Of a DNA stretch of 64,000 nucleotides, positions 3,277-63,791 are shown in pieces. The stretch comes from Armatimonadota bacterium (GTDB lineage Bacteria; Armatimonadota; Zipacnadia; Zipacnadales; VGFC01), in the NCBI GenBank assembly GCA_016869045.1, contig VGFC01000004.1, positions 40 through 64,039 on the forward strand, given 5' to 3'. Each line of letters starts with the position of its first letter. Positions within the stretch are counted from its first letter, which is position 1. The position numbers and the translations under genes are program-made. The notes beneath the pieces were generated by a model. The model searched no databases. It was not told the origin of the DNA and worked only from the letters and a program-made list of their open reading frames with translations.

Positions 3277-3692
3277 TGGGCTGTGACGAGAAGCTCGTGT
3301 TCGTCGAAGAGGCCGACGTGGAGACACAGGTCTTCGACTGGGGCCGCCTGTCGTGGCTGAGCGAGCCGCGCGTAACCGCCGCCGAGCGCTTCAGCGCGGG
3401 CGTCGTGAAGCTCGAGCCGGGCGGGGGCCACGACCGCCACAATCACCCGGGCGTTGAGGAGATTCTCTACGTGATCAGCGGCAAGGGCTGGCAGGTTGTC
3501 GATGCGCCGAGCGGCCGGCAGGAGCGCGAGATCGGGCCCGGCGTCCTTGTCCACATCCCGCCGGACGTGTACCATTCCACTGTGAACACCGGCGAGAGGA
3601 CGATGGCCATCCTGGCGATCTACGCGCCGCCCGGCCCCGAGGCGGAGCTGCGAGCCATGCCGGGCGTCATCATCGAGCCGCCACAGCGGTGA
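3273..3692 (+). CDS. cupin domain protein
   Basis: 139 aa with a cupin motif (GGGHDRHNHPGVEEILYVISGKG…HIPPDVYHS). Start overlaps the upstream stop (ATGA). Confidence 0.6.
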   Translation: MMGCDEKLVFVEEADVETQVFDWGRLSWLSEPRVTAAERFSAGVVKLEPGGGHDRHNHPGVEEILYVISGKGWQVVDAPSGRQEREIGPGVLVHIPPDVYHSTVNTGERTMAILAIYAPPGPEAELRAMPGVIIEPPQR

Positions 3693-3995: not shown

Positions 3996-4832
3996 ATGTC
4001 GTTCACTCGCTCCGAAGTCCTCGCCCGTCTGCGCAAGAGCATCGACGCCGGCGTCCCGATCATCGGCGCGGGCGCCGGGACCGGGATCAGCGCCAAGTTC
4101 GAGGAGGCCGGGGGCGTCGATCTCATCATCATCTACAACTCCGGCCGCTACCGCATGGCGGGGCGCGGATCGCTGGCGGGCCTGATGCCCTACGGCGACG
4201 CGAACGCCATCGTCATGGAGATGGCCGGCGAGGTGCTGACCATCGTCGAGGACACGCCGGTCCTCGCAGGCGTATGCGCCACCGACCCCTTCCGCCAGAT
4301 GGACAAGTTCCTGCAGGAGGTCAAGGCCATCGGCTTCGCGGGGGTGCAGAACTTCCCGACAGTCGGCCTCATCGACGGGCTCTTCCGCCAGAACCTGGAG
4401 GAGACGGGCATGGGCTACGGGCTGGAGGTGGAGATGATCCGCCTCGCCCGCGCGATGGACTTGGTGACCACGCCCTACTGCTTCAACGCCCACGAGGGCC
4501 GGCTGATGGCCGAGGCGGGGGCCGACATCGTCGTCGCCCACATGGGCCTGACGACCAAGGGCTCCATCGGCGCGACGACGGCGGTGACCCTCGAAGAGGC
4601 GCCCGCCAGGGTGCAGGAGATCGCCGACGCCGCGAAGGCCGTGAACCCGGACGTGATCGTCCTGTGCCACGGCGGCCCGATCTCCGAGCCCGAGGATGCC
4701 GAGTACGTGTTGCAGCGCACTCAGGGCGTCCACGGTTTCTACGGCGCATCGAGCATGGAGCGCCTGCCCGTCGAAGTCGCGATCACCGAGCACATGCGCA
4801 AGTTCAAGGCCGTGAGGTTCCGCACGCCATGA
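3996..4832 (+). CDS. phosphoenolpyruvate hydrolase-like TIM-barrel protein (Tm-1 C-terminal-domain-like)
   Basis: 278 aa, [68 protein letters not shown]. Conserved partner of UPF0261 genes. Confidence 0.65.
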
Positions 4833-6034
4833 CCGCACGCCAACGCTTCCAGGCGATCATCCGGCACGAACGCCCCGATCGGCTTCCCTACACCTTCGGC
4901 GGGCCGCGCGCCTCGACGTTCGCGGCCTGGCGCAAGCAGGGCCTCTCCGAGGAGCAGCAGGCGAACTGGCATCGGTTCGTCGGCGAGGACGGCGCCACGG
5001 GGATCGGCACGCTGGACTGCGGTTGGCGCCCGCCCTTCGAGGAAGTCACGCTGGAGATCGACGGCAACAAGCGCATCTGGGTCGACTCGTGGGGCGTCAA
5101 GCGCCTGGACGCCATCGCGCAGCCGACCGAGGGGTTCCAGACCCGCAAGTACATCGAGTTCCCGGTGAAGTGCCCGGCGGACTTCGAGGCGATGAAGCAG
5201 CGCTTCGACCCTCACGATCCCGCGCGCACCGCGAACGAGGATTGGCGCAACCACCTCGAGCGGTGCCGCGATTCAGCGGTGCCCGTCATGGTGACCGTGC
5301 CCGGGCCGTACTGGCGCACGCGCGACTGGTGCGGGTTCGAGGGGCTGTCGCTGATGGTCTACGACCAGCCGGCGCTCGTGCACGAGATGTTCGAGTTCTG
5401 GACCTGGTTCCTCATGGAGCTGCTCGACGAGCCCCTGAAGCACATCGAGGTGGATGAACTCATCACCAATGAGGACATGGCCTTCAAGGGTCAAGCGATG
5501 CTCTCCCCGGCCAAGATGCGCGAGTTCCTCGTGCCGTGCTACCGCAAGCTGTACGAGTTCCTCAAGGAGCGCGGCGTGCGGGCCGTTGTGATGGACTGCG
5601 ACGGCTACAACAACCAGATCCTCGATACGATGTACCCGGAGTGTCTCGATGGGATTCAGCCCATCGAGATCGCCGCGGGCAACGAGCCCGAGGAGATTCT
5701 GGCGCGCTATCCCGGCATCTTCATCCACGGCGGTATCGACAAGCGGGAGTTGCGCTTCAGCCGCGAGCAGGCGCGCGCCGAGGTGGCTCGCCGTTTCCGC
5801 ACCGCCCACGAGCAGGGCGGGTACATCCCGCATGTGGACCACGGCGTCCCGCCCGACATCCCCTTGCGCAACTTCCTGTACTACGTCGAGCTGGCGAAGG
5901 GCTTCGCGCGCGGCGAGGACCTGGAGACCTACAAACCGCCCTGCGAGCTGGAGCAGCAGCTTGGCCCGATCGAGGAGATGTTCGACCCCCGCCGGGCAAT
6001 CGCCCTGGCCTATGCCGACGACGACGAGCACTGA
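4829..6034 (+). CDS. uroporphyrinogen-decarboxylase (URO-D) superfamily protein (MtaA/CmuA-like methyltransferase or decarboxylase)
   Basis: ATG at 4829 overlaps the upstream TGA. About 401 aa with URO-D-like conservation to the C-terminus (…[26 protein letters not shown]…). The longer track ORF from 4274 is an out-of-frame artefact over the upstream gene. Confidence 0.55.
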
Positions 6035-6059
6035 AGGGAATGCGGGGACATGACCCACC

Positions 6060-6121
6060 GGGAATTGAGGGACATGACCCAATTCGGTCGTATCGAATTG
6101 GGATCGTGTCCCTCAATTCCC
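6060..6121. repeat. near-perfect 27-bp inverted repeat (GGGAATTGAGGGACATGACCCAATTCG / CGAATTGGGATCGTGTCCCTCAATTCCC) with flanking short direct repeats
   Basis: Read directly. Arms are reverse complements with 2-3 mismatches and a 7-nt loop. GGGACATGACCCA occurs twice and CCGAACTCCC twice. Sits between the URO-D-like stop (6034) and the GT4 start. Confidence 0.6.
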
Positions 6122-9244: not shown

Positions 9245-9290
9245 AGCCAACCCGAAACTCGCAACCCGGAACCCGAGACTCCCTACCCTC
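9245..9290. repeat. family C short repeat (aacccgaaactcgcaacccggaacccgagac)
   Basis: CCCGAAAC-type heptad-like repeats in the spacer between the eda stop and the Gfo/Idh/MocA start. Confidence 0.4.
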
Positions 9291-15941: not shown

Positions 15942-16066
15942 ACGGGTGCGGGAGGGGCACCGCGCGGGCCTGTGTTTGTCGGCCCGCGCCCTCTTGTTAC
16001 TGCCCCCCGTTGAGCTTCGGTCACCGGACCGGCGTCGGCACGCTCCCCAGGAAGGAGGCAGTCACG

Positions 16067-17050
16067 TTGCCGCAATACTCGAAGCGATGTCTCTTCGCGG
16101 GCACGGGTGCTCAGCGACTCGTCGAGGCCGTCGCCAAGCACCTGAGCCGCATCAACCGGAAGCCCCAGAGCGTCTCCCCGGCGCTGGTCGGCAAGTGGGC
16201 GAACGCCGAGACGCGCGTTCAGCTCCAGACCAACGTTCGCGGGGCGGACGTCTTCATCTTCCAGTCCTTCGCCGACCAGGTGAACGACCGCATCATGGAG
16301 CTGATGCTGCTCGTGGACGCGGCCTTGCGCGCCTCGGCCGACCGCATCACCGTGGTCGCGCCGTACCTCCCCTACTCGAAGCAGGAGAAGAAGGTCCGCG
16401 GCCGCGAGCCTATCGCCGCGAAGGTCCTGGCGAACATGCTGCGCGCCGCCGGCGCCAACCGCGTCATCTCCGTGGACCTCCACGAACGCGCCATCCAGGG
16501 CTTCTACGACATCCCCTTCGACCACCTGACCGCGCTGGGCGTCCTCGCGGAGCACCTCGCGAAGCTCGGGTACAACCGCAACGACTCGGTCGTCGTTGCA
16601 CCGGACGAGGGCGCCATGGAGAAGTCCATGGCTCTTGCGCAGATGCTGGGTGTGGACGTTGCCGTCGTCCTCAAACGCCATCCCGAGGAAGACCCGGAAT
16701 CGGTAGAGACCGCAGCGTTCATTGGCAACGTCAAGGGGCGCCGCGCGGTCATCTGGGACGACATGATCCTGGGCGGCTCCACGCTCGTGAACGCAGCGGA
16801 AGAGGTCCTGAAGGGCGGAGCCAAGGAGGTCGTGGCTTGCATCACCCACGCCATCCTCTGCGGCACCGCCGTCCAGCAGATCGAGGCCTCCAAGCTCTCC
16901 AAGCTGATCGTCAGCGACACGACCGCACCCGAACGCGCCTACGCCAGCGAGAAGATCACGGTCGCGAGCATCGCGGGCCTCCTGGCCGAGGCCATCGACC
17001 ACATCCACCGCAACCTCAGCGTGAGCGAGCTGCTGCCCGACGAGGTCTGA
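16067..17050 (+). CDS. prs: ribose-phosphate pyrophosphokinase (PRPP synthetase)
   Basis: Full-length PRS motifs (…DLHERAIQGFYDIPFDHL…, PRPP-binding VIWDDMILGGSTLVNAAE). Proposed TTG start at 16067 has a GGAGG RBS 7 nt upstream; the track start at 16010 is also TTG. Confidence 0.85.
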   Translation: MPQYSKRCLFAGTGAQRLVEAVAKHLSRINRKPQSVSPALVGKWANAETRVQLQTNVRGADVFIFQSFADQVNDRIMELMLLVDAALRASADRITVVAPYLPYSKQEKKVRGREPIAAKVLANMLRAAGANRVISVDLHERAIQGFYDIPFDHLTALGVLAEHLAKLGYNRNDSVVVAPDEGAMEKSMALAQMLGVDVAVVLKRHPEEDPESVETAAFIGNVKGRRAVIWDDMILGGSTLVNAAEEVLKGGAKEVVACITHAILCGTAVQQIEASKLSKLIVSDTTAPERAYASEKITVASIAGLLAEAIDHIHRNLSVSELLPDEV

Positions 17051-17079
17051 CGGCGCGTCCGAGAAGGGGTGGAGCCGTT

Positions 17080-17166
17080 GGGACTGTCCCAGTTTTCGGC
17101 AGCCTCACCGCCGAAAACGGGACTGTCCCCTGTTGGCGGTGGCCTCCTCTGGTTCCCTCTGAGTCC
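17080..17166. repeat. family D element copy 1: GGGACTGTCCC - hairpin (gttttcggc/gccgaaaac) - GGGACTGTCCCCTGTTGGCGGTGG…CCCTCTGAGTCC
   Basis: Read directly, immediately 3' of prs. The flanks match the copy at 39123-39210; the internal hairpin does not. Confidence 0.6.
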
Positions 17167-19036: not shown

Positions 19037-19145
19037 TCACGTCTCAGGTCGCGTGTCTCGTGTCTCGCGTTTCAGGTCGCTGCCGCGCCTTGCTGGCGCC
19101 CCCTGCCGTGCAACCCGAAACCCGAAACTCGAAACCCCAAAACCA
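19037..19145. repeat. family C intercistronic module (gtctcaggtcgcgtgtctcgtgtctcgcgtttcaggtcgc … aacccgaaacccgaaactcgaaacccc)
   Basis: Direct and inverted short repeats between the GltS FMN-domain gene and the GXGXG-domain gene on the minus strand. Confidence 0.5.
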
Positions 19146-19148
19146 GCC

Positions 19149-20666
19149 TTACTCCCCCGCGTGCTTCACTCCCAGCACGTCGAGGCTCTCCTTCGTCAGG
19201 TTGACGCCGCGCAGGCGATCGCGCGAGCCGCGCAGCGATTCTACCGCATTCACGCCCAGCGCGCCGAGTATCTCCTTGAGTTCCTCGGTCCAGCCCTCCA
19301 GTAGGTTGGCGGCCATCTCGGCGCGCACGGACGGGTCCAGGCGCCGGGTCAACTCCGGCCGCTGGCTGGTGATCCCCCACGAGCAGTTGCCCGTGTGGCA
19401 CTGCTGGCAGACGTGGCAGCCCAGCGTGATGAGCGCCGCGGTGCCGATGGCAACCGCATCCGCGCCCAGGGCGATGGCCTTCGCCACGTCGGCCGACGAG
19501 CGGATGCTCCCCGCGCAGATGATCGAGGCCTCGTGGCGGATGCCGTCCTTTCGGAGGCGCTCATCCACCGCCGCCAACGCGATCTCGACGGGGATGCCCA
19601 CGTTGTCGCGGATGACCGTCGGCGCAGCGCCCGTGCCGCCGCGAAAGCCGTCCAGGTAGACGTAATCGGCGCCCGCCCGGACGATCCCCGAGGCGATGGC
19701 CCCGACGTTATGCACCGCCGCGATCTTCACGCCGACGGGCTTCTCGTACTCCGTGGCTTCCTTCAGGGCGTAGATGAGCTGCCGTAGGTCCTCGATCGAG
19801 TAGATGTCGTGGTGCGGCGCGGGAGAGAGGGCGTCCGAGCCGATGGGAATCATGCGGGTGCCCGCGATGTCCGAGGACACCTTGCGTCCGGGTAGGTGCC
19901 CGCCGATCCCGGGCTTCGCGCCCTGCCCGATCTTGATCTCGACCGCCGCCGAGTTCCTCAGATACCCCTCATGCACGCCGAACCGACCCGACGCGCACTG
20001 GACGATGGCGCAGTCCGCGTAGTCCTGCAGGTCCTCGTGCAGGCCGCCCTCGCCCGTGTTCCATAGCGTGCCGATCTTCTTCGCGGCCATCGCCAGTGAC
20101 TTCTGCGCGCTCAGGCTGATCGAGCCCAGCGACATCCCGGCAAAGATGATCGGCGTGCTGATCCGCAGTTGCGGCGCGATCTTCGTCTTGAGCTTCGGCT
20201 TGCCGTCGGGGCCTGTCTCCACCTCGATGCGCTCGGGCTTGCGCCCGAGGTACGTGCGCAGCTCCATCGGCTCGCGCAGCGGGTCGATCGAGGGATTCGT
20301 CACCTGGCAGGCATCGAGCAGCAGGTTGTCCCACAGCACGGTCCACGGGCGGTCGTTGCCCATCGCGCTGAGCAGCACGCCGCCGCTCTCCGCCTGCCGC
20401 ACGATCCGCTTCTGCATCGCCGGGCTCCACACATCGTGGCCGGCCTGCGCGTAAGGCCGCTCGTGGATTTGGATGCACTGCTGGGGGCAGTGATCCGTGC
20501 AGAAGTGACACGCCACGCATGGGTTCTCGCCCGGCATGACCCGGTCGGTGAACTCCAGCGCGTTGAAGCCGCAGCCCATCACACACCGCTTGCACTTGAT
20601 GCAGCGGTCGTGGTGGACGACCTGCACGAACTCACCGGGTACGGTCGACTTCGTTGCCAGCCTCAT
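19149..20666 (-). CDS. glutamate synthase FMN-binding domain protein with N-terminal 2x[4Fe-4S] ferredoxin domain (archaeal-type GltB core)
   Basis: CIKCKRCVMGC and CVACHFCTDHCP clusters, then the GltS FMN domain (…GEGGLHEDL…KIGQGAKPGIGGHLPG…DGFRGGTGAAP…). Confidence 0.8.
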   Translation of the reverse strand: MRLATKSTVPGEFVQVVHHDRCIKCKRCVMGCGFNALEFTDRVMPGENPCVACHFCTDHCPQQCIQIHERPYAQAGHDVWSPAMQKRIVRQAESGGVLLSAMGNDRPWTVLWDNLLLDACQVTNPSIDPLREPMELRTYLGRKPERIEVETGPDGKPKLKTKIAPQLRISTPIIFAGMSLGSISLSAQKSLAMAAKKIGTLWNTGEGGLHEDLQDYADCAIVQCASGRFGVHEGYLRNSAAVEIKIGQGAKPGIGGHLPGRKVSSDIAGTRMIPIGSDALSPAPHHDIYSIEDLRQLIYALKEATEYEKPVGVKIAAVHNVGAIASGIVRAGADYVYLDGFRGGTGAAPTVIRDNVGIPVEIALAAVDERLRKDGIRHEASIICAGSIRSSADVAKAIALGADAVAIGTAALITLGCHVCQQCHTGNCSWGITSQRPELTRRLDPSVRAEMAANLLEGWTEELKEILGALGVNAVESLRGSRDRLRGVNLTKESLDVLGVKHAGE

Positions 20667-20686
20667 CTTGGCGCCTCAACCGTAGC

Positions 20687-20746
20687 GTCGTAGGTCGGGA
20701 TTCCAATCCCGACACTGCCTTTCTCAACACAATCCGTGCTGCGCCC
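20687..20746. repeat. family B partial copy (right half: cgtcgtaggtcgggattccaatcccgacactgcctttctcaacacaatccgtgctgcgccc)
   Basis: Shares the internal hairpin GTCGGGATtCCAATCCCGAC and the right terminal repeat TCAACACAATC with the full copies at 30672 and 59041. Confidence 0.6.
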
Positions 20747-20755
20747 AAACGCGCC

Positions 20756-21866: not shown

Positions 21867-21985
21867 AACGACGGTTACAGGTCTCGGGTTTCGGGTCTCG
21901 GGTTACGGACACAGCCACTCCAACTGCCGCTCCGCCGGCGCCAAGTCCCGGCGGCAACCCGAAACTCGAAACCCGAAACGGCCTC
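21867..21985. repeat. family C intercistronic module: GTCTCGGGTTTCGGGTCTCGGGTT …51 nt… AACCCGAAACTCGAAACCCGAAAC (long imperfect inverted repeat)
   Basis: Read directly. On the minus-strand mRNA it lies just 5' of the GATase start codon. Confidence 0.55.
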
Positions 21986-27297: not shown

Positions 27298-27318
27298 GCT
27301 TCGCACAAACACGGGAAT

Positions 27319-27378
27319 AGTGGGGCGGGCATTCTTGCCCGCCAAGGGGCCCCGGCGGGCAAGAATGCCCGCCCCACT
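27319..27378. terminator. perfect 25-bp inverted repeat (AGTGGGGCGGGCATTCTTGCCCGCC / GGCGGGCAAGAATGCCCGCCCCACT) with a 10-nt palindromic loop, downstream of the HEAT gene
   Basis: Arms are exact reverse complements. It lies 22 nt after the stop and is followed by GTTTCC. Candidate strong transcription terminator or protein-binding palindrome. Confidence 0.5.
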
Positions 27379-27419
27379 GTTTCCGTATCTCTGAGGGACC
27401 CAAGTAGGAGGGCCTTCCG

Positions 27420-28225: not shown

Positions 28226-28342
28226 GGGAATCCGCGATTCTCGTCCGAGCTGTTCCCGTGTAGGGGCGCGATTCATCGCGCCCGCCCATGTAGGGGCGCC
28301 ATTCATGGCGCCCAAGAACCGATACCGCGGATTCTCATACAG
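28226..28342. repeat. family A element copy 1 (MITE-like: GGGAATCCGCGATTC… two hairpin units …CAAGAACCGATACCGCGGATTCTCATACAG)
   Basis: Units tgtaggggcgcgattcatcgcgccc and atgtaggggcgccattcatggcgccc, each a 7-bp-stem hairpin with TTCA loop; ends are an imperfect inverted repeat (GAATCCGCG…CGCGGATTC). Lies upstream of the AOR gene. Confidence 0.7.
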
Positions 28343-28380
28343 ACCCCCGACCACCACGGATCGGCGAAAGGGGAAGCGTC

Positions 28381-30560: not shown

Positions 30561-30819
30561 CAGGAATCCGCGATTCCCGTCCGAGCCGTTCCCATGTAGG
30601 GGCGCGATTCACCGGCCGTTGTTGTGTAGGGGCGCGATTCATCGCGCCCGCCCATGTAGGGGCGCCATTCAGATTGTGTTGAGAAAGGGCCCCGTCAAAG
30701 GAAGAACCCTCTCCTACGCGCTCTACGTGGCTCGTAGGTCGGGATACCAATCCCGACAATGCCTTTATCAACACAATCTTCATGGCGCCCAAGAACCGAT
30801 GTCGCGGACTCCCATACAG
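30561..30819. repeat. family A element copy 2, interrupted by a nested family B MITE
   Basis: Left end CAGGAATCCGCGATTCCCGTCCGAGCCGTTCCC plus hairpin units; right end CAAGAACCGATGTCGCGGACTCCCATACAG. The third hairpin unit ggcgccaTTCA|…|TTCAtggcgcc is split by the insertion. Confidence 0.7.
30672..30778. mobile_element. family B MITE (107 bp; TIRs GATTGTGTTGAGAAAGG / CCTTTATCAACACAATC; internal hairpin GTCGGGATACCAATCCCGAC) inserted in a family A hairpin loop with a 4-bp TTCA target duplication
   Basis: Read directly. TTCA at 30668-30671 and 30779-30782 flanks the insert. Removing the insert restores the canonical unit ggcgccattcatggcgcc. Confidence 0.7.
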
Positions 30820-34758: not shown

Positions 34759-35577
34759 CTACAGCCCCAGTTCCGTCCGCGCGTAACGCACGCCCTGCTC
34801 CACCGCCTCATGCTCCCGCTCCCACGTCTCCTGCGCGGAAGCCCCGGCCGGAACCAGGCTCTCGAGCTGCACACTCGCCTGCGGGGCTTGTTCGTGCAGC
34901 AGGGCCACGATCTCCCGCAGCGGCACGATGCCCTCGCCGAGGGGCACGCCGTGCATCAGCGCTGTGTCCGCCTGGAGGGTGATCGTCGCGTCCTTCAGGT
35001 GGACCATCAGCACGAGGGGCGCGAGGTTGCGAGCCGCCGCCAACGGCTCCTCCAGCACCGCCAGCGAGTTGCCCGTATCGAAGCAGAAGCCCAGGTTCGG
35101 GCTGCCGACTCGCGCGGCGATCTGAAGCAGCTCCTCCGACCGCAGCTCCATGTGGTTCTCGATGGCGACCTTCAGCCCGAGTTCCTCGGCGAACCGCATC
35201 GTCTCGCGTAGGTTGGCGACCGCCGCATCTGCTTGCACCTGCACGGGCGGCTCGTAGCGGCTGCGGCTGACGAACGTACGCAGCACCGGCGACCCGAGAA
35301 CCGCCGCCGCCTCCAGCCACGGCCTCAGCGTCCCGAGGTCGGTTCCCATGTAGCCCAACTCCAGAGCCAGACCGCGCTCCCCTGCGACCTCACGCACCCG
35401 CTGCAGGTGCGCCTCCTCCAGCGACCCAACATGCCCCGCGTCGATGTAGACGGCCTCTAGCCCGAGCCCCGACGCGCGTTCGAGCACGTCGAAGATGTCG
35501 AACGCCTCCGGCACCCCGGGCTGTCCGGCCAGCCCGAACGAGTGATGGTAGCTGTAGGAACCGAGCCCGAACCTCAT
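34759..35577 (-). CDS. sugar phosphate isomerase/epimerase (xylose-isomerase-like TIM barrel)
   Basis: MRFGLGSYSYHH…AIENHMELRSEELLQIA…GFCFDTGN… (AP-endonuclease-2/XylA-like metal ligands). Start trimmed to ATG 35577; the upstream 35 codons lie in family A repeat DNA. Confidence 0.7.
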   Translation of the reverse strand: MRFGLGSYSYHHSFGLAGQPGVPEAFDIFDVLERASGLGLEAVYIDAGHVGSLEEAHLQRVREVAGERGLALELGYMGTDLGTLRPWLEAAAVLGSPVLRTFVSRSRYEPPVQVQADAAVANLRETMRFAEELGLKVAIENHMELRSEELLQIAARVGSPNLGFCFDTGNSLAVLEEPLAAARNLAPLVLMVHLKDATITLQADTALMHGVPLGEGIVPLREIVALLHEQAPQASVQLESLVPAGASAQETWEREHEAVEQGVRYARTELGL

Positions 35578-35626
35578 CGGCGCCCCTCCCTCGTTGCCCT
35601 GCAGCGTGGAAAGCACCGCCCCCGCC

Positions 35627-35708
35627 GTGTAGGGGCGTGATTCATCACGCCCAAGCGTAGGGGCGCCATTCATGGCGCCCAAATGTAGGGGCGCGATTCA
35701 TCGCGCCC
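35627..35708. repeat. family A hairpin array copy 3 (three units: …gcgtgattcatcacgcc…, …gcgccattcatggcgcc…, …gcgcgattcatcgcgcc…)
   Basis: Intercistronic between the isomerase and the Gfo/Idh/MocA gene. Each unit is a perfect 7-bp stem with TTCA loop. Confidence 0.7.
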
Positions 35709-35731
35709 CTCCTCGCCTCTCACACGCCCGC

Positions 35732-39122: not shown

Positions 39123-39210
39123 AGGACTGTCCAAGTCTCGATCCCACAGGGATCGAGACGCAGGACTGTCCCTTGTTGGCGGTGGGGTCCTGGAACTCCC
39201 TCTAGTCTCC
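39123..39210. repeat. family D element copy 2: AGGACTGTCC - hairpin (gtctcgatccc/gggatcgagac) - AGGACTGTCCCTTGTTGGCGGTGG…CCCTCTAGTCTCC
   Basis: Read directly. Same conserved flanks as copy 1 at 17080-17166 with an unrelated internal hairpin. Overlaps the last codons of the downstream secreted-protein gene. Confidence 0.6.
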
Positions 39211-40845
39211 CGGTGCCTGCCGTGTGACGATGGGAACATACCCTACCTCGAAGCCCCGCGGCGGGGTCACGATCAGCCTCGGGTCGATTCCCGCCAGCCT
39301 TCCGCGTGCGGGCGGCGCGAGGTAGTCGCGGTCCTTCTTCCAGCTCCGATGGATTCTCTCGACCCGGGCCTGCATGTCCTCTCGCTCCGCGGGCGTCAGA
39401 TCGGCGTTGAGCAGTGCCGGCTGGTCCGCGAACCGGTACCAGTAGTAGGTCACCACGCTCCCGTCCCCGAGGCGCGCCTCGAAGGGTCCTGCAACCGGGC
39501 CGGGCCTCTTCCAGCAGCTGTTCGGATCGTCGGGCGTGACGTATGCCTCGGGCTGGGGCTCGGCGGGCCGGTCGAAGCGCACCTGGGCCAGACCCGTCTC
39601 GGCCGGCACGTCCTCGGCCCGAACCGGGACCCACTCTGTCTTCTTGCCGTCGTTGACCAAGTGGTAGTACTGAGGCAGCGTTGCCAGCAGACCGTCCTTC
39701 GAGCCGCTCCTGGAGACCAGTTCGTAGTTCCACCGGTATCCGAAGGTGGTGGGGTCCGGCGCCTGGGGAGTCGCAAAGGAAGTCCAGGCGACGGGCCTCC
39801 TCTCCTCATTCGGTGTGGACGGGGCGTAGATTCTCCAGGTTGCCCCTCCGCCTCCGCTGAAGGTGTGCAGAACGGCTCCCTGCGGATCGATGGCGCCGCT
39901 GGCCTCGGGCCCGCCCTCAAACCACGCCTTCACGCCGTCCCATAGCGCAGCCTTGTTGTAGGACGTGACATGGTGAACGACGACCGAATCGCCCTCCGGC
40001 CCCCGGGGGAAGGAGGTTGGGGCGATCCGCGCCCACGTCTCGCCCTTGGCGTCGACCGCCTGGACGCTGGGGATGTACTGGGTCTCCATCTGCAGCGCCC
40101 TGTTGGGCTCGGAGGGACGGCTGTCCAGCAGCATCCCGGCCAGGCGAGGCTCCGGCACGGTGGAACGCGACCAGAAACAGGGCAGGAAGAAGGCGACCGG
40201 ACCCTTGAAGTTCCGCGTGTTCAGGAACAGCGTCCAGCACTGGTCGCCCGTCGGGACGTCCTTGCCGTCCGTGGTGGACTTGGCCTTCGTGAGCGGAAGC
40301 GGGAGGTACCCGTAGCCGAACAACTCGCCGCAGGTACCTTGCGCCAGGTTCAGCCCATCCGGCGGCCAGAGCACCCAGGGACTGAGCTGGGCCACTCCGT
40401 AGAGGCCCGTCGGGTTGTCCCAGTCCCGGCCCTTGCCCGCTCCGGGCCCGTTGGCCCATTCCACGAAGTTCAGGGCCACGCCGCCCATGATGAACTTCGG
40501 CGTCTCCGTGGCGAAGCGCGTGTCGCGCCACCACCCCAGGCCGCCCTCGATGTCGGAGTACGCGTTCTTGGGCGCCGGACCGTCGTACTGGGCGAACATC
40601 CATGTGCCGGGTAGACCGGTCTGGAACTGATGCCCCGGATACGTCTTCAGCAGCGGCCAGGCCGCCACGTACATCGAGAACCCGGCGTTGTACGTCTCCG
40701 GGACTCTCTCGTTCGGCACGAGCAGGTACCCGGCCATCTCGCCTTCCTCGATCCTGCCGTCGGTCGCGAACACGGAACCTTCGGGCCAGACGCATGCGAC
40801 CGCCAGGCAGGCGATGAGCAGCTCGACGAAACTCCTTGTCACCAT
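39202..40845 (-). CDS. secreted hypothetical protein (signal peptide; function unknown)
   Basis: 547-aa ORF, N-terminal MVTRSFVELLIACLAVACVWP; Trp/Gly-rich, no recognisable catalytic motif. Confidence 0.35.
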   Translation of the reverse strand: MVTRSFVELLIACLAVACVWPEGSVFATDGRIEEGEMAGYLLVPNERVPETYNAGFSMYVAAWPLLKTYPGHQFQTGLPGTWMFAQYDGPAPKNAYSDIEGGLGWWRDTRFATETPKFIMGGVALNFVEWANGPGAGKGRDWDNPTGLYGVAQLSPWVLWPPDGLNLAQGTCGELFGYGYLPLPLTKAKSTTDGKDVPTGDQCWTLFLNTRNFKGPVAFFLPCFWSRSTVPEPRLAGMLLDSRPSEPNRALQMETQYIPSVQAVDAKGETWARIAPTSFPRGPEGDSVVVHHVTSYNKAALWDGVKAWFEGGPEASGAIDPQGAVLHTFSGGGGATWRIYAPSTPNEERRPVAWTSFATPQAPDPTTFGYRWNYELVSRSGSKDGLLATLPQYYHLVNDGKKTEWVPVRAEDVPAETGLAQVRFDRPAEPQPEAYVTPDDPNSCWKRPGPVAGPFEARLGDGSVVTYYWYRFADQPALLNADLTPAEREDMQARVERIHRSWKKDRDYLAPPARGRLAGIDPRLIVTPPRGFEVGYVPIVTRQAPGD

Positions 40846-41763: not shown

Positions 41764-41821
41764 GGCCCCTGCTCCTTCCTTGCCTTGGGACTCCCTGACG
41801 TGTCATCGTAGGCCCACGTAT

Positions 41822-41905
41822 CTCGTAGGTCGGGATTCCAATCCCGACACTGCCTTTCAACACAATCCGTGCTCTGCCCACGGCCGGGCGCAGCACGCTG
41901 CGCCC
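41822..41905. repeat. family B partial copy plus flanking hairpin (…gtcgggattccaatcccgacactgcctttcaacacaatc cgtgctctgccc … gggcgcagcacgctgcgccc)
   Basis: Right-half MITE-B sequence and the same CGTGCTCTGCCC extension and second hairpin as the full copy at 59041. Confidence 0.55.
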
Positions 41906-44905: not shown

Positions 44906-44960
44906 GTGTGCCGTCACTCCTCCCACGCGGGGCTCCGTGGTTCCCGTCCTCGCCGCCCTC

Positions 44961-45014
44961 ATGTAGGGGCGCGATTCATCGCGCCCAAGTGTAGGGGCGC
45001 CATTCATGGCGCCC
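44961..45014. repeat. family A hairpin array copy 4 (two units)
   Basis: atgtaggggcgcgattcatcgcgccc aagtgtaggggcgccattcatggcgccc, between the beta-helix gene stop and the GH-like gene start. Confidence 0.7.
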
Positions 45015-47211
45015 GAGGCTCGCCACCGCCGGTTCCTACCCAGCGCTCCGGCAGAATCCCGAACCCATCAAACCAGTACTGCTGCCCCTGCTTCCCGTTC
45101 CCGTTGGTGTAGAAGCGGAACATCTGGAGCAGCTTCACATCGGGGAAGACCTCGCGCACCCACCGCGCGTCGATCTCGACCTCGTGCCACTGGTCGTCGT
45201 CGGTCAGCGTGACCTTGCCGAGGTCCTTGTAGTTGCCCACATTGCGCGTCGCCGTGCCGCCAACGCACACCGCGCCCTGGCCGTGGTTCGTGCTCTTGAA
45301 GGCGTGGAGCCACAGGCCCACCGGCACGCCCGCAGGGATGCGGTAGGCGAAGCGCACGGTCGGGAAGCGGTCGATGTCCCACCAGGGCGGGCGGATGTCA
45401 CACGAGAGAATGGCGCCATCCCTCTCCGCGTAGACGCGCATCGAGCGCTTGCCGCTGGAAGCCGTCGTATCGTCGATCCGCGCATTCGTGTTCTGCTGGC
45501 GGCTGAAGTTCCAGAGGTAGAACCAGTTCTCCAGGTCCTCCGGCTCGAAGCCGACGGCAACGGTGGGCTTCGTCGCCGTCTCCATCGTCTCGATGCGCAG
45601 GCCGCCGGGGATCGCCGGGCCCGCGTACCACTTCTGCTTCTCCGCGCCGCGCTCGTACGCGCCGAGGTCCGGCGCTTTGCCGACGTACGGCAGCGCGACC
45701 CCGTCGCCCTTCTGCCACGTCGCGTCGCGGTCGAGCGTGAGGATGTTCGCCTCGATATCGGCCTTCACGACGACCGCCTGCTGCTTCTTCGCGCCGATGA
45801 AGACGAGGTCACCCGTCTCGCCCGGGATGCCGAAGCCGTCGTAGAATGGCCGCGCATCATCGACCGGCACTTCGCGCCCCGAGCCCGCCTCGCGAGTTAG
45901 CGCCAGCGGCTCTCCTGCATCGAGACACGGGCTGCCCTCGCGCAGCCGGTAGTCATCCTTCGCCGCATCGACGAAGAGCGGATCGGCATCCAGGTTGCCG
46001 GCGAACTGCGCGGGCTTCTGCGCATCCGCCTCCGCGGCCGTCATCGTCAGCCCGTCCCAGGTCGAGACGCCGGGGAACTTCCAGTCATAGCGCACCGTCT
46101 TGTCGCCGGGTCTGCTGCCGAAGAGCACGTTCGAGCGGAAGATGTTGTCCTCCGCGATGTTCGAGTAGAGCAGCAAGGAGAGGCCGTCGCCGCCCGAGTC
46201 GTTGCCTGCAAACACGTTGTTGCGGAACACGTTGCCCGCCACGTAGTGCTGCTCAGGCTTCTCGCTCAGGTCGATCATCTCGTAGCCGTACTCGAGGTTG
46301 CGGTACCACGTGTTGTAGTACAGGTGCGAGCGCAGCATGCCCCACGGCTCGTTGGTCTCCCACTTGTACGAGTTGATGACCAAGGGCCCGTACCAGTTGC
46401 GGTAGATGACGTTGTGCCGGAAGATCGAGTCCACGACAAACAGCTTCGCGCGCCCGTCCGCCGAGCCCGACCCATCGAACCCGTTCGTGATGACGCAGCG
46501 CTCCATCAGCAGCCGCGGCGTCGAGAAGCACTCGAAGTTCCGTCCCCACCGGCAGTCGAAGATGCACTCCCGCACGACGTTGTACGGGCAGTCGAACCAC
46601 AGGCCGAAGGGCCGATGCCCGGCGCGGCTGATGTGGATGCGGTAGAAGAGGTTGTGGCTGCAGTCGAAGTTGTTCCACATGTCCCCGCCGACGTGCCCCC
46701 ATTCGCCGAGGGCGAGCGTCCGGAGGCACTCCAGGTTCTCGTAGCGGTTGTAGTGGCACCCCTTGCACTCGATCGGGCTGTAGACGCCCGTGGCCTGCTC
46801 CATGTGGCAGTTGGCGATGCCGCAGTGGCTCGCCGAATCGAGCTTCATCCACCCTCCCGCCGTCGGCAGGAGCGACAGCCCGTCGATGGTGATCCAGTTC
46901 CGCTCCTTGAGCCGGACGCAGGTCGCGACGTCGTCGCTCGATTTGCCGCCCGTGACCACCGCCTTCAGCGGAGATGCTGCGCGGTACGTGATCCGCTTCC
47001 CCTCGGCGCCCGAGTTCGCCGGCTCAATCACGCCGGGGTACTCGCCATCGAGCAGCACCACCGTATGGCCCGGCTGCAGCGTCGCATTGGCCTTCGCGAG
47101 CGTCTCCCACGGCTGGGCGCGCGTGCCGGCGTTGGCGTCATCACCGGAGGGTGAGAGGTAGTACTCAGTCGCGGTGGCCACCGAGGCGAGGACGAGGATG
47201 AGGGTAAGCAT
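45004..47211 (-). CDS. secreted right-handed parallel beta-helix repeat protein (pectate-lyase-fold carbohydrate-active enzyme)
   Basis: Start MLTLILVLASVATATEYYL (signal). Repeated NxxFxxN/HN beta-helix rungs (…FRHNVIYRN…, …VFRNNVFAGN…, …NIFRSNVLFG…); C-terminal beta-sandwich. Confidence 0.5.
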   Translation of the reverse strand: MLTLILVLASVATATEYYLSPSGDDANAGTRAQPWETLAKANATLQPGHTVVLLDGEYPGVIEPANSGAEGKRITYRAASPLKAVVTGGKSSDDVATCVRLKERNWITIDGLSLLPTAGGWMKLDSASHCGIANCHMEQATGVYSPIECKGCHYNRYENLECLRTLALGEWGHVGGDMWNNFDCSHNLFYRIHISRAGHRPFGLWFDCPYNVVRECIFDCRWGRNFECFSTPRLLMERCVITNGFDGSGSADGRAKLFVVDSIFRHNVIYRNWYGPLVINSYKWETNEPWGMLRSHLYYNTWYRNLEYGYEMIDLSEKPEQHYVAGNVFRNNVFAGNDSGGDGLSLLLYSNIAEDNIFRSNVLFGSRPGDKTVRYDWKFPGVSTWDGLTMTAAEADAQKPAQFAGNLDADPLFVDAAKDDYRLREGSPCLDAGEPLALTREAGSGREVPVDDARPFYDGFGIPGETGDLVFIGAKKQQAVVVKADIEANILTLDRDATWQKGDGVALPYVGKAPDLGAYERGAEKQKWYAGPAIPGGLRIETMETATKPTVAVGFEPEDLENWFYLWNFSRQQNTNARIDDTTASSGKRSMRVYAERDGAILSCDIRPPWWDIDRFPTVRFAYRIPAGVPVGLWLHAFKSTNHGQGAVCVGGTATRNVGNYKDLGKVTLTDDDQWHEVEIDARWVREVFPDVKLLQMFRFYTNGNGKQGQQYWFDGFGILPERWVGTGGGEPRAP

Positions 47212-54140: not shown

Positions 54141-54190
54141 GTCGCACCTCTTCTTGGTTCGTGGTCACGCTACCCGCGTGTCGCGTCCCA

Positions 54191-54283
54191 GCCGTTCCCA
54201 TGTAGGGGCGCGATTCATCGCGCCCAAGTGTAGGGGCGTGATTCATCACGCCCAAGAACCGCTGTCGCGGATTCCCCCATACG
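54191..54283. repeat. family A element copy 5 (GCCGTTCCCA - two hairpin units - CAAGAACCGCTGTCGCGGATTCCCCCATACG)
   Basis: In the divergent region between the S8 protease and purL; same unit and tail as copies 1-2. Confidence 0.7.
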
Positions 54284-54424
54284 TTCGTCGTTGCCTCCGG
54301 AAGACCTGCACGATCTGCCTTGTCGCGACGCAGGACTCGGGGGGCTCCCTAGCGAAGCCTGCTCCGCGGGACGACGGCACAAGGGCCGGCGAGCCCCGCA
54401 AGCGTTGTCCACGGGAGACCTACG

Positions 54425-56782
54425 ATGCAGCTCGATGATCGACGCGTTCGCGTATCCGAACTCACCGACGAGCAGCTCGCTGCGGAGCTGAAGCAGCACG
54501 GCGTCGGGTTGACGCCGTTTGAGGCCAGGCGGATCGTGGAACTGATCGGCCACGACCCGACGCTCACGGAGCTGCACATCTTCAACGTCGAGTGGAGCGA
54601 GCACTGCTCGTACAAGAGCTCGCGGGCGACGCTGAAGGAGTTCCTGCCGACCGACGCCCCCAACGTGATCCTCGGGCCGCAGGAGGACGCGGGGATCATC
54701 GAGCTATGCCGGCACAAGGGCCGGCGCTATGGCGTCGTCATCGCGCATGAGAGCCACAACCATCCCTCGCAGGTCCTCCCCCGCGAGGGCGCGGCCACCG
54801 GCATCGGCGGGATCGTGCGCGATGTGGACTGCATGGGCGCGCGCGTGATCGCGACCGGCGACCCGCTGCGCTTCGGCAGTCTGCAAAGCGAGAACGTCGA
54901 GCGGACGCGCTGGATCGTCGAGGGCGTCGTCGAGGGCATCTGGCAGTACGGCAATGCCCTCGGCGTGCCGAACCTGGGCGGGGACGTCTACTTCCGCGAG
55001 GCCTTCGACGACAACTGCCTCGTCAACGTGGTCTCGCTCGGGATTGTCGCCGAGGAGGACATCATCCACTCCGCCGCTCCGCCCGAAGCCGCCCAGGAGC
55101 CTTACGACCTCATCCTCGTCGGCAAACCGACAGACGACTCCGGCTTCGGCGGCTCGGCGTTTGCCAGCAAGGTCCTCAGCGAGGAAGAGCAGGCCGAAGA
55201 CCGCGCTGCGGTTCAGGTGGACGATCCCTTCCTCAAGAACGTGCTCGCGATGCGCAAGGCCAACGAGGCGGTCCGCGAGGCGGCGAAGGCCCAGGGCTAC
55301 CCCATCGGCATCAAGGACCTCGGCGGCGGCGGCTTCGCCTGCGGTTCGTCCGAGATCACGGCCGCCGGTGGGTTCGGGGTGGACATCGACCTTGACGCGG
55401 TCCACGTCGGCTTGGAGAACCTCCACCCCGAGACCATCTGCTGCGCGGAGACCCAGGAGCGCTACGTCCTCGCTGTGCCCCGGCAGTTCACGCCCGAGGT
55501 CTTGCGCATCTACAACGAGGACTGGGACCTGCCGAACGTCTACGAGGGCGCCTGCGCGCGCGTGGTCGGCACGTTCAACGACACGCAGCGGTACGTCATC
55601 CGGCACCAGGGCAAGATCGTCTGCGACGCTCCCGTCGAGGCGGTGACCTCCGGCATCTCCTACCAGCGCGAAGAGAAACCTCGCGAGCCGCAGCTCGCCG
55701 AGCCCGACTTCGAGCAGCCGGCCGACCTCGCCGCCGCCTTGCTGAAGGTCCTCGGCCACGAGAACGTCTGCTCGCGCGAGTTCATCTACCGCGCGTATGA
55801 CACCGAGGTGCAGGGCAACGCGGTGATCCGTCCGGGCGAGGCGGACGCCGGCGTGTGCGCGCCGCTGGAGGGCAGCCGGGCGGGTGTCGCGCTGGCGATG
55901 GATGGGAACCCAGCGTACGGTGCGATCAGTCCATACTGGGCGGGTGCGAACGCGGTCGTCGAGGCGTGCCGTAACGTCGCTGCGGTCGGCGCCATGCCGG
56001 CGGGCCTCACCGACTGCCTCAACTACGGCAACCCCGAGACTCCCACCGCCTTCTGGGAGTTCCGCGAGGGCGTGAAGGGCATCGCGGATGCGGCCCGGCA
56101 GGTCGGGCTGAAGACCCATCCGGGCCAGCCGGTGCCGGTCGTGTCCGGCAACGTGAGCTTCTACAACGAGTCGGCGACCGGGCGCGCCGTCGAGCCGTCG
56201 GGCATCATCGCGTGTGTCGGCGTGATGGCCGACAGCTCGCAGGCCGTCACCATGCAGCTCAAGCACCCAGGCGACACGCTGTATCTCGTCGGCCCGCGCT
56301 ACGACGAATGCGGCGGCTCGGCCTACTACCAGGCGTTGGCACTGGGCCTCGGCGCCAACGTGCCCCACGTCCGCTGGGACGAGCAACGGGCGGCTATCTA
56401 CGGCGTCCTCGATGCCATCGACGCCGGGCTCGTGGCCGCCTGCCACGACATCAGCGACGGCGGTTTGGCGGTCGCACTCGCCGAGATGGCCCTCGGAGGC
56501 TACGCGAGGGGGAAGCTCGGGGCCGAAGTGGACCTCACTCCCCTGGGTGGTGACCTCCGCGCCGACACGCTGCTGTTCAGCGAATCCGGCGGCTTCGTCG
56601 CCGAGGTGAAGGCGGGCCGCGAGGCCGAGTTTGAAGCCCTCTTCGCCGGGCAACCGGTCACGCCCATCCGCATCGGCACGGTCACCCCCGAGTCGCAGTT
56701 CCGGGTCGCCGGCCTCCTGTCGGTCACGATCGCCGACATGGCCGAGGCCTGGACCACCGGCCTCGCCACGCGCCTCCGCTAA
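54425..56782 (+). CDS. purL: phosphoribosylformylglycinamidine synthase subunit PurL (FGAM synthase II)
   Basis: 785 aa with the PurL-specific N-terminus (…FNVEWSEHCSYKSS…), ATP-binding and AIRS-like domains throughout. Confidence 0.85.
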   Translation: MQLDDRRVRVSELTDEQLAAELKQHGVGLTPFEARRIVELIGHDPTLTELHIFNVEWSEHCSYKSSRATLKEFLPTDAPNVILGPQEDAGIIELCRHKGRRYGVVIAHESHNHPSQVLPREGAATGIGGIVRDVDCMGARVIATGDPLRFGSLQSENVERTRWIVEGVVEGIWQYGNALGVPNLGGDVYFREAFDDNCLVNVVSLGIVAEEDIIHSAAPPEAAQEPYDLILVGKPTDDSGFGGSAFASKVLSEEEQAEDRAAVQVDDPFLKNVLAMRKANEAVREAAKAQGYPIGIKDLGGGGFACGSSEITAAGGFGVDIDLDAVHVGLENLHPETICCAETQERYVLAVPRQFTPEVLRIYNEDWDLPNVYEGACARVVGTFNDTQRYVIRHQGKIVCDAPVEAVTSGISYQREEKPREPQLAEPDFEQPADLAAALLKVLGHENVCSREFIYRAYDTEVQGNAVIRPGEADAGVCAPLEGSRAGVALAMDGNPAYGAISPYWAGANAVVEACRNVAAVGAMPAGLTDCLNYGNPETPTAFWEFREGVKGIADAARQVGLKTHPGQPVPVVSGNVSFYNESATGRAVEPSGIIACVGVMADSSQAVTMQLKHPGDTLYLVGPRYDECGGSAYYQALALGLGANVPHVRWDEQRAAIYGVLDAIDAGLVAACHDISDGGLAVALAEMALGGYARGKLGAEVDLTPLGGDLRADTLLFSESGGFVAEVKAGREAEFEALFAGQPVTPIRIGTVTPESQFRVAGLLSVTIADMAEAWTTGLATRLR

Positions 56783-56783
56783 C

Positions 56784-56892
56784 CCCCATGTAGGGGCGCC
56801 TGCGCTAGCCCCCATGTAGGGGCGCCTGCGCTAACCCCCATGTAGGGGCGCGATTCATCGCGCCCACATGTAGGGGCGTGATTCATCACGCC
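56784..56892. repeat. family A array copy 6 (two variant units cccatgtaggggcgcctgcgcta(g/a)cc, then two canonical hairpin units)
   Basis: Immediately after the purL stop. Confidence 0.65.
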
Positions 56893-57066
56893 CCATGCCG
56901 TTTCGTCCTTGCATCCCGTCCTTGCATCCTCTCCGCCTGCGGCGGCCCTCTTGGCCCGCCCGGTTGTTTGCATCTGGCAAGGGTTTTTCTGAAACCTCGT
57001 ACAGACCACGCTGTCTACACCTCCAATCGGGAGTGTAACTGCTCCCGGGCTGAAAGGACTGGGTCG

Positions 57067-58963: not shown

Positions 58964-59029
58964 AACCGTCGTCATGTACGGGCGCGATTATGGTCATGCA
59001 CAATGTGATTAGGCGGGCGTCGTTGTAGG

Positions 59030-59208
59030 GGCAGAGCGTGGATTGTGTTGAAAAAGGGCTGCGTCGAGGAAGCACGCCTCTCATACGCGCCGTACGCGGC
59101 TCGTAGGTCGGGATACCAATCCCGACACTGCCTTTATCAACACAATCCGTGCTCTGCCCAGGTGTTGCTGAACGGACGGCATGGGCAGAGCACGCTCTGC
59201 CGCTACAA
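59030..59208. mobile_element. family B MITE full copy 2 (core 59041-59147) with extended inverted flanks GGGCAGAGCGTG/CGTGCTCTGCCC and a trailing hairpin GGGCAGAGCACGCTCTGCC
   Basis: TIRs GATTGTGTTGAAAAAGG / CCTTTATCAACACAATC; internal hairpin GTCGGGATACCAATCCCGAC. Upstream (58981-59020) is a degenerate family A unit (gtacgggcgcgattatggtcatg). Confidence 0.65.
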
Positions 59209-60366: not shown

Positions 60367-60432
60367 CCGCCCTCGCCGTCGAACTACGGCACCATCGCGC
60401 CCAAGCGGGGTCCCGCGGTTCCTCTTGCCGTC

Positions 60433-60514
60433 ATGTAGGGGCGCGATTCATCGCGCCCATGTGTAGGGGCGTGATTCATCACGCCCAAATGTAGGGGCGC
60501 CATTCATGGCGCCC
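60433..60514. repeat. family A hairpin array copy 7 (three units)
   Basis: atgtaggggcgcgattcatcgcgccc atgtgtaggggcgtgattcatcacgccc aaatgtaggggcgccattcatggcgccc. Confidence 0.7.
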
Positions 60515-60589
60515 GAGGGTCCGTATCGTGGGTTCCTGTCTTGGCGGAGGCCCCAATCGGGCCTCCGCTTCGGTAAACCGACACCACAG

Positions 60590-63783: not shown

Positions 63784-63791
63784 TCCTTCAC

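Follow-up and report, generated by a model that had tools for sequence, protein, structure and literature searches.

The ERIC/IRU elements of enterobacteria and the Correia elements of Neisseria are imperfect palindromes of ~100–150 bp, found in transcribed intergenic regions in either orientation, with TA duplicated. Their length variants are due to internal insertions and deletions at fixed points, and their conservation between species is high. Prokaryotic MITEs are small elements with terminal inverted repeats, flanked by direct repeats that fade with age, and they give rise to stem-loop transcripts (PMC10969869). The IS1031 group shows a preference for 5'-TNA-3' and generates exclusively a 3-bp direct repeat; one published member of this group carries the 17-bp repeat GAACCTGTCTAGTATCT (PMC12016507). 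A different organization was described for the REPIN by Bertels and Rainey (2011), in which two highly conserved regions enclose a less conserved spacer, the whole forms a hairpin and compensating changes are common (PMC3116915).

Family D is a previously undescribed repeat family of Armatimonadota. It is represented by two copies, A and B, in the window (the whole stretch of DNA that was analysed, 64 kb). We favor, with a probability of about 0.55, the reading that Family D is a new non-coding repeat family of the MITE type, probably moved in trans by an IS5/IS1031-like transposase, and that the hairpin core of the element would be kept by some sort of sequence-specific recognition. In a literature search, the box and tail strings were matched by unrelated primer sequences only.

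Anatomy of the Family D element

A complete copy has a length of ~120 nt (about 115–125 nt end to end) and thus extends beyond the coordinates given in the earlier note. Read on the + strand, it consists of a triplet, a 17-nt arm (GAGGGTGTAYGAGAAGG), a loop (GGTGGAGNCGTT), a box (GGGACTGTCCC), the tip, a second box (GGGACTGTCCC), a loop (YTGTTGGCGGTGG), a 17-nt arm (CCTTCTCRTACACCCTC) and again a triplet, the latter usually being TGA or TCA. The two arms are inverted repeats of each other. The loops, G-rich on one and the same strand, cannot pair with each other; the left one is present in most copies, though it lies outside the search pattern. The tip is a perfect hairpin, variable in sequence and in length. 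Three arm subfamilies were distinguished: F1 (GAGGGTGTAYGAGAAGG), F2 (GAGGTAGTCTCAGGAC) and F3 (GAGCCTRTCCCGARA). The terminal-repeat sequences named for the family are GAGGGTGTAYGAGAAGG, GAGGTAGTCTCAGGAC and GAGCCTRTCCCGAAA. The features of both window copies are collected in Table 1.

Table 1. Features of Family D copies A and B, in window coordinates.
Feature	Position	Strand	Sequence and remarks
Copy A, left TGA	17048..17050	+	prs stop codon; left half of the putative 3-bp target-site duplication
Copy A, left terminal inverted repeat	17051..17067	+	CGGCGCGTCCGAGAAGG; from alignment and model match; outer 10 nt degenerate with respect to the consensus GAGGGTGTAYGAGAAGG
Copy A, left G-rich loop	17068..17079	+	GGTGGAGCCGTT; the right loop is not complementary to it
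Copy A, box 1	17080..17090	+	GGGACTGTCCC; read from the sequence
Copy A, variable tip, class I	17091..17118	+	bulged A, perfect 9-bp stem GTTTTCGGC/GCCGAAAAC, loop AGCCTCACC
Copy A, box 2	17119..17129	+	GGGACTGTCCC; pairs with box 1, leaving a T·T mismatch
Copy A, right G-rich loop	17130..17142	+	CTGTTGGCGGTGG (the "tail" of the earlier note); then ...CCCTC TGA
Copy A, right terminal inverted repeat	17143..17159	+	CCTCCTCTGGTTCCCTC; from the alignment
Copy A, right TGA	17160..17162	+	right half of the putative target-site duplication
Copy B, box 1	39123..39133	+	AGGACTGTCCA; left loop and left inverted repeat not recognisable upstream
Copy B, variable tip, class II	39134..39161	+	perfect 11-bp stem GTCTCGATCCC/GGGATCGAGAC, loop ACA
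Copy B, box 2	39162..39172	+	AGGACTGTCCC; read from the sequence
Copy B, right G-rich loop	39173..39185	+	TTGTTGGCGGTGG; then ...CCCTC TAG
Copy B, right terminal repeat, F2 subfamily	39186..39202	+	GGTCCTGGAACTCCCTC; ends on the G of the minus-strand TAG stop

Copy A is a nearly complete F1 element with a decayed left arm, inserted at the stop codon of prs. The covariance-model match that spans it covers positions 17047–17166. In its left repeat, the inner 7 nt (GAGAAGG) are the sole remaining stretch that pairs with the right arm. Its class I tip was found in 13 other copies. Copy B belongs to another subfamily, with a different tip, the right repeat kept and the left repeat lost. Its tip is about the same as that of the copy at locus L010, though the frame of L010 differs. 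The positions of the two copies, their box pairs, their different perfect hairpins and the shared tail all read as described in the earlier note.

The description of conserved ends around a variable structured core, made from these two copies, also holds in ~30 further ones, among which at least 10 different perfect hairpins occur with the boxes and the tail kept. With tips of 20 to 75 nt, in lengths that are not multiples of three, the family keeps no common reading frame. The same tip type is found in different outer frames, and vice versa: the F1 frames contain three tip types, the F2 frames three, and the F3 frames two in addition to a single-box form (L008). The term "cassette-like" is a fair description of this pattern. 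Single-box "empty" forms are seen in L008 and L029, and in L016 boxes are nested inside boxes. The tip of L007 holds a hairpin that stands alone at positions 6052–6115 of the window, in L010 and in L037. Box slippage, self-templated correction of the palindromes and gene conversion between copies could produce such reshuffling of tips and frames. In L010, L017, L021, L028 and L007, the core is present and the terminal repeats are not recognisable. Hairpins of the type GGACAGGC..GCCTGTC were found between the same kind of terminal repeats, beside Family D copies, in L015 and L033. They give some support to the proposed link between Family D and the palindromes with GGACAG/CTGTCC arms.

Occurrence and insertion sites

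In the 64 kb of the window, the exact string GGACTGTCC occurs four times, all within copies A and B, and the exact string TGTTGGCGGTGG occurs twice, only in these same copies. With one mismatch allowed, the 9-mer is not enriched in the window (14 found versus 24 expected), so that only the exact strings, in their linked arrangement, carry the signal of Family D. A covariance model built from 18 aligned copies matched copy A with 113 bits and copy B with 56 bits. The next-best window match, at 28 bits, came from a different hairpin family, and the model found no third Family D copy in the window.

With the pattern GGACTGTCCCNTGTTGGCGGTGG, a scan of species-representative genomes revealed an Armatimonadetes MAG from Lake Tanganyika that contains four copies, of which two lie at contig ends; an alphaproteobacterial MAG gave one partial match. 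The metagenome scan with the exact pattern yielded 35 loci (~25 distinct) in samples from lakes, wetlands and sediments. Together, the MAG and the metagenomes provide ~30 distinct copies beyond copies A and B. All metagenome copies were selected by an exact match of 21 to 22 bases covering box 2 and the right loop, so the conservation of these two parts is not independent evidence. Diverged copies were recovered by the covariance model (L011 3710–3830, L010 3101–3164 and L005 1460–1576), giving second copies on each of the L010 and L011 contigs, and a second L040 copy (~1497–1560) was seen by string search. The family is thus larger than the two window copies, and these do not go back to a segmental duplication, the origin that the earlier note had weighed against its own proposal.

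Among viral contigs, the left-loop and terminal-repeat patterns gave only chance matches inside coding sequence, and a blastn search of the PLSDB plasmids with copy A gave no match. Two candidates were rejected. The L053 spacer, considered as a degenerate copy, is not matched by the model and has an unrelated fold, and position 532 of L004, considered as an IS end, proved to be a short remnant without core.

Copy A lies between prs (ORF 16010–17050) and a gene of 368 aa, in a spacer of 142 nt. The orthologs of prs and of the 368-aa gene are only 8 nt apart in L043 (prs 87% identical) and 6 nt apart in L047 (85%). The TGA is likewise found at the empty site of L043, and the same triplet follows the right repeat of copy A. 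Unrelated spacers follow prs in L041 (91%), L058 (86%) and L057 (87%), and a different gene on the opposite strand lies within ~10 nt after prs in L045 (83%). The element is absent from the prs site in all six of these relatives. Judged by its prs homologues, the window belongs to Armatimonadota; the best match among them has 91% identity, and "Candidatus Zipacnadales" is the closest relative with a name.

At the site of copy B, the TAG stop (39202–39204, minus strand) belongs to a gene of 547 aa (39202–40845), the stop-codon position of which is conserved across three orthologs. In the closest relative (L052, a 91%-identical ortholog), an F2-type arm, GAGGTAGTCTCAGGACCC, is located directly at the stop codon, where the contig ends. 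The arm is absent in the 84% and 79% relatives, which have other sequence at this place. The comparisons with relatives at the prs site and at the copy B site indicate that the element comes and goes at fixed gene junctions.

The genes flanking the copies are unrelated housekeeping genes, coding for prs, an ABC ATPase, a LolA-like protein, archaeal-type glutamate synthase subunits and a DUF4129 protein, with a histidine kinase and TPR proteins in other loci. About half of the copies are in sense and about half in antisense orientation with respect to the neighbouring genes.

Identical triplets flank 6 of 18 copies (TGA/TGA in L002, L020 and copy A; TCA/TCA in L005, L012 and L022), compared to 2.7 expected by permutation (P = 0.026), and the inverted alternative is seen in two copies only. 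The right-hand triplet starts with T in 16 of 18 copies and is often the real stop codon of the adjoining gene. T-N-A on both sides is the commonest state. The weight of this excess is tempered by the 12 of 18 copies without identical triplets and by the fact that T-S-A could in part stem from a palindromic terminus. The F2-type copies, including copy B with its TAG, have no TNA, which weakens the case for a 3-bp TNA duplication. L036 is flanked by CATC/CATC, L027 and L008 have direct repeats of 10–11 nt, which do not fit a 3-bp duplication, and a few copies show repeats of 7–11 nt. Long target duplications were also considered for L002 and L012 (direct repeats of 9–11 nt) and were discarded, the repeats being inflated by the near-palindromic termini.

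A small non-coding element with terminal inverted repeats, dispersed in copies that are present in one relative and absent in another, is what is expected of a MITE. According to this reading, a DDE transposase supplied in trans would move the element by cut-and-paste or copy-in. If it is of the IS1031 group type of the IS5 family, insertion would occur at TNA and these 3 bp would be duplicated. The element would land in short intergenic gaps, often precisely at a stop codon, and, once in place, all of it could adopt a single long hairpin, be it in single-stranded DNA, in a cruciform or in the RNA of a read-through transcript. Its tip would evolve fast, through compensating changes and exchange between copies.

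The mobilizing partner is hypothetical, and the MITE reading is weakened by the outcome of the search for a transposase. No recombinase, integrase or transposase domain was present in the 20 scanned flanking or neighbouring proteins from the window and the loci, 15 of which are window proteins around copies A and B; a recombinase recognising the box, as envisaged in the earlier note, was hence not encountered among them. No full-length IS with matching terminal repeats and no transposase gene was found in the window or in the retrieved loci. An all-against-all blastp of 200 ORFs from all loci revealed no mobile-element family among recurrent neighbours. One recurrent cluster, which includes a TPR protein, looked like repeat-driven similarity. 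Two further points are at odds with an ordinary MITE: the core-only copies suggest that the core may be the real unit, with the repeats as accessories, and the two loops, not being inverted copies, depart from what a symmetric transposase-binding end predicts.

Folding and conservation of the core

Each box is a palindrome around a central T, and box 1 pairs with box 2, leaving a central T·T mismatch. The pairing of the boxes with each other is supported by a compensating change in L011b, where box 1 reads GGGACTGACCC and box 2 reads GGTCTGTCCC: the palindromes of the individual boxes are destroyed and the box-to-box pairing is kept. Since the boxes pair with each other, box, hairpin and box constitute a single long stem-loop with a variable tip. 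Compensating changes also distinguish the tips, as in GTCTCGATCCC versus GTCCTGATCCC.

The predicted folding energies of copies A and B are −41 to −49 kcal/mol as RNA and −22 to −29 kcal/mol as DNA, with z-scores of −3.1 to −4.6 against shuffled sequence. Over the 18 copies, 82.9% of the cells of the named structure pair, versus 39–48% when the partners are slid. Changes on both sides affect 17 pairs, and none of 500 shuffles reaches the observed value. In the outer helix (columns 5–23 with 100–117), 75% of the cells pair, with changes on both sides in 13 of 18 pairs. Run on the mixed alignment, RNAalifold independently returned the stems of box and tip and not the outer helix, which is supported by the named-structure count only.

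The degree of conservation differs strongly along the element. In the 14 class-I copies, the divergence from the consensus amounts to 19% in each arm, 11.5% in the left loop and 7.1% in the tip, and to just 0.6% in box 1, which is off the consensus at 1 of 154 positions. Box 1 and the left loop were outside the search pattern, and box 2 was fixed by it. The central T of box 1 is invariant in every copy, so the T·T mismatch is conserved, with box 2 being fixed by the search pattern. The fact that boxes and loops are kept almost unchanged suggests that the core is recognised by a protein.

Alternative readings and relation to known systems

A REP/REPIN-like origin seems rather unlikely to us. 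Family D would then consist of the box palindromes, each with an adjacent GTTGG, around a freely evolving spacer, and a HUH/Y1 transposase (RAYT or IS200-like), encoded in single copy, would copy the unit in its folded single-stranded form. This enzyme would recognise the T·T mismatch, the foot of the hairpin and the G-rich single strands beside it. The architecture agrees with the published description (PMC3116915), and a core more conserved than the outer arms, as well as core-only copies without terminal repeats, are in line with it. The same is true for the strand-specific features, i.e., the G-rich loops on one strand and the central T in box 1 of every copy. GTAG-type REP arrays abound in the window, which makes a RAYT-type system probable in this genome, and GTTGG is also found ahead of the hairpin in the units of the 60.6-kb array. 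However, the regions adjacent to the boxes (GGTGGAGNCGTT and YTGTTGGCGGTGG) are not inverted copies and do not form a REP doublet, and the usual GTAG tetranucleotide is absent from Family D. The direct TGA/TCA triplets at six copies are unexpected, as HUH transposition makes no duplication. A crude regex scan (HUH...Y..NP) of all retrieved DNA gave no match, and no RAYT-like gene is located beside any copy.

Selection at the RNA level appears doubtful. The element would act as an intercistronic or 3'-end hairpin (exonuclease block, U-tract-less stop or uncoupling of translation) or as a protein-binding RNA motif, and mobility would explain its spread only. The very stable RNA folds of the window copies speak for such a role, and so does the location of copies right after stop codons, between co-directional and probably co-transcribed genes. 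The core is conserved beyond the needs of pairing. Summed over 32 copies, the + strand folds slightly better than its complement (−2199 versus −2073 kcal/mol) and has more G-U pairs (139 versus 88). On the other hand, the roughly even orientation argues against a strand-specific cis-acting RNA, as half of the copies would be transcribed as the C-rich complement, and the mismatches of the outer stem, 18 G·T versus 16 A·C, favor no strand. A test of orientation by GC skew, which is negative in 24 of 34 copies, is weak, given that the copies are not independent and that gene orientation confounds it. Promoter and terminator scans at both copies detected nothing at the elements, neither a T-run terminator nor a promoter consensus, and no conserved sequence outside the element could serve as its own promoter. 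Rfam 15 gave no match over the whole window at the gathering score, and around copy A, at E<10, only three chance miRNA or CRE matches of 13–19 bits. ARAGORN found no tRNA or tmRNA. An intrinsic terminator, which the earlier note had mentioned along with small RNA families, was rejected, as neither copy has a T-run and the hairpin is followed by CYTGTTGG; a known RNA family was dismissed for want of any Rfam match.

About equally doubtful is the possibility that the invariant core is a selected module in its own right. A dedicated protein would recognise the two GGGACTGTCCC boxes with their conserved T·T mismatch, between two G-rich loops on the same strand, in their folded single-stranded form, and tips would be exchanged or inserted site-specifically at the box. 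This would amount to a new hairpin-targeting recombination or insertion system, riding on MITE frames or outliving them. It would explain the occurrence of tips in unrelated frames, the single-box forms, the nesting in L016 and the nested hairpin family of L007.

The analogy to integron attC sites, raised in the earlier note, or to another folded-strand recombination site has very little probability. A tyrosine recombinase would recognise the GGGACTGTCCC stem and exchange cassettes. The likeness is one of fold, and superficial: two stems with an unpaired region between them, a mismatched or bulged base, a variable terminal structure and GTT in both loops. Two direct copies flank a single gene in each of L010 and L011, and the single-box "empty" forms (L008, L029) could be regarded as empty sites, but slippage between two 11-nt direct boxes explains these equally well. 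Both sides of the base are G-rich and non-complementary, without the RYYYAAC/GTTRRRY (R''/R') pair; the right GTTGGCG does not fit GTTRRRY, and the left CGTTGGG is not RYYYAAC. The 20 scanned proteins contain no integrase or recombinase domain, and there is no cassette array. The neighbouring genes are not promoterless cassettes; they are conserved genes of the chromosome, each in a context of its own, and are syntenic in relatives without the element. The two window copies are 22 kb apart, with copies in either orientation relative to the genes.

If the MITE reading is true, Family D adds newly described miniature mobile repeats to the poorly studied, mostly uncultured Armatimonadota. Its insertion precisely at stop codons, between genes that are otherwise closely packed or are likely co-transcribed, would reshape intergenic regions and probably affect mRNA stability as well. 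An inner core ~30 times better conserved than the terminal repeats, together with the reshuffling of the tips, goes beyond a routine MITE and could point to a hairpin motif recognised by a protein as DNA or RNA. Copies of the element break metagenome assemblies, and several are located at contig ends. The covariance model and a diagnostic 23-mer can be used to find this lineage in metagenomes.

With the ERIC/IRU and Correia elements, Family D has in common the size, the imperfect palindrome, the intergenic location in either orientation, the internal length variants and the high conservation between species. It differs from these TA-duplicating elements in sequence and in phylum. To our knowledge, the combination of an invariant box pair with a T·T mismatch and a swappable perfect-hairpin tip is not known from either of them. 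With REPINs, Family D shares two conserved blocks that contain a short palindrome, a less conserved spacer, a long hairpin with frequent compensating changes and an extragenic, multi-copy occurrence. Unlike REPINs, it has an additional outer inverted repeat and flanking direct triplets, and outside the palindromic box its blocks do not form inverted copies. The IS1031-type MITEs share with Family D a non-coding length of ~120 bp, 17-nt repeats starting with GAG and, in part of the copies, T-N-A triplets at both ends (identical in one third of copies), as well as an intergenic dispersal in both orientations, presence or absence between relatives and a stem-loop fold. The repeat of the IS1031 group (GAACCTGTCTAG..; PMC12016507) also resembles the F3-type repeat of Family D (GAGCCTGTCCCG..). 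Family D differs from these MITEs in its GC content, which is high rather than AT-rich. Conservation in an ordinary MITE centres on the terminal repeats, whereas in Family D these diverge by 19% and it is box 1, at 0.6%, that is kept.

Further hairpin repeats in the window

The window contains a second long-hairpin repeat, whose features are listed together with the other elements in the table. It has a folding energy of -74 to -76 kcal/mol and constitutes a family distinct from Family D, the ~120-nt hairpin-forming repeat under study. A standalone long hairpin is also present, both in the window and at two loci from other genomes or metagenomes. In the Family D copy of a further such locus (L007), the tip itself is made of this hairpin family, nested within the repeat. 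Short intergenic runs of heptamers were likewise identified, and one such run adjoins the Family D copy of L039.

Coordinates of the repeats and of the gene discussed here (window positions unless a locus is named)
Feature	Position	Sequence or detail
Second long-hairpin repeat, ~125 nt	30655-30792; 59024-59161	termini GGGCGCCAT..AGATTGTGTTGA, CGTAGGTCGGGATTCCAATCCCGAC hairpin inside
Second long-hairpin repeat, partial copies	20618-20750; 41800-41890	
Near-perfect palindrome, ~76 nt	27316-27382	CAGTGGGGCGGGCATTCTTGCCCGCCGGGG / CCCCTTGGCGGGCAAGAATGCCCGCCCCACT
39-nt unit array	60590-60990	two blocks, three units each; unit GTTGGAGGACAGGCATTCTTGCCTGTCC
Hairpin separating the two blocks	60751-60798	GGGGACTG...CTGTCCCC
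Standalone long hairpin	6052-6115	GGGAATTGAGGGACATGACCCAATTCG...CGAATTGGGATCGTGTCCCTCAATTCCC
Standalone long hairpin, elsewhere	L010 ~4745-4790; L037 ~3451-3500	GGGAATTGAGGGACATGACCCAATTCG...CGAATTGGGATCGTGTCCCTCAATTCCC
CCCGAAAC-like heptamer runs	9247-9286; 19110-19135; 21954-21979	GCAACCCGAAACCCGAAACTCGAAAC
Gene for 547-aa protein	39202-40845	minus strand
REP-like tandem arrays	28249-28349; 30585-30671; 35559-35714; 44935-45050; 54174-54289; 56770-56927; 60393-60550; 63752-63991	unit TGTAGGGGCGCGATTCATCGCGCCC

The 60.6-kb array and Family D

The two blocks of the 60.6-kb array are preceded identically by ACCATGACCTCGCGCACCACGCTCGCCGTC. The array has the motif GGCATTCTTGCC in common with the ~76-nt palindrome, which folds at -76.6 kcal/mol. 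A hairpin similar to that of the array (GGACAGGC..GCCTGTC) is found at L015 (755-820), flanked by terminal repeats of the F3 type, one of the three subfamilies of Family D terminal repeats, and immediately adjoining a Family D copy. At L033 (~320-390), one F3-type terminal repeat adjoins the Family D copy. Because of these adjoining F3-type repeats, the array-type hairpin repeat and Family D may have a common mobilising system.

Neighborhoods of Family D

Hairpins of differing kinds have been acquired repeatedly at the junction downstream of prs. In two relatives, this spacer carries a GC-rich hairpin unlike Family D, namely ACCGCCCTCCGAGTGGGGGCGGT in L041 (~5000-5060) and CCGCCCTCGCCCCGCGAGGGCGG in L058 (~2000-2050).

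The 547-aa protein encoded next to the Family D copy at 39123-39210 contains no Pfam domain. Each of the best 120 of its >3500 matches (E <= 1e-40) shows 73-91% identity; some of the matches come from MAGs that carry the labels Planctomycetes, Phycisphaerae, Verrucomicrobia and Limisphaerales. For a protein without annotation, its conservation is unusually strong.

In L001 (2019-2041), from a MAG labelled Alphaproteobacteria, a 23-nt stretch matches box 2 and the right loop of Family D exactly, while box 1 and the hairpin are absent at this locus. The match directly adjoins, on the opposite strand, the start codon of an ORF called epimerase-like by eye from its N-terminal GxxGxxG motif. It may be a chance match, the remnant of a copy or the result of a transfer.

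REP-like arrays

Many intergenic gaps of the window are occupied by tandem arrays of a REP-like unit, in which GTAG is followed by a short hairpin. These arrays suggest that the genome harbors a REP system of the RAYT type.
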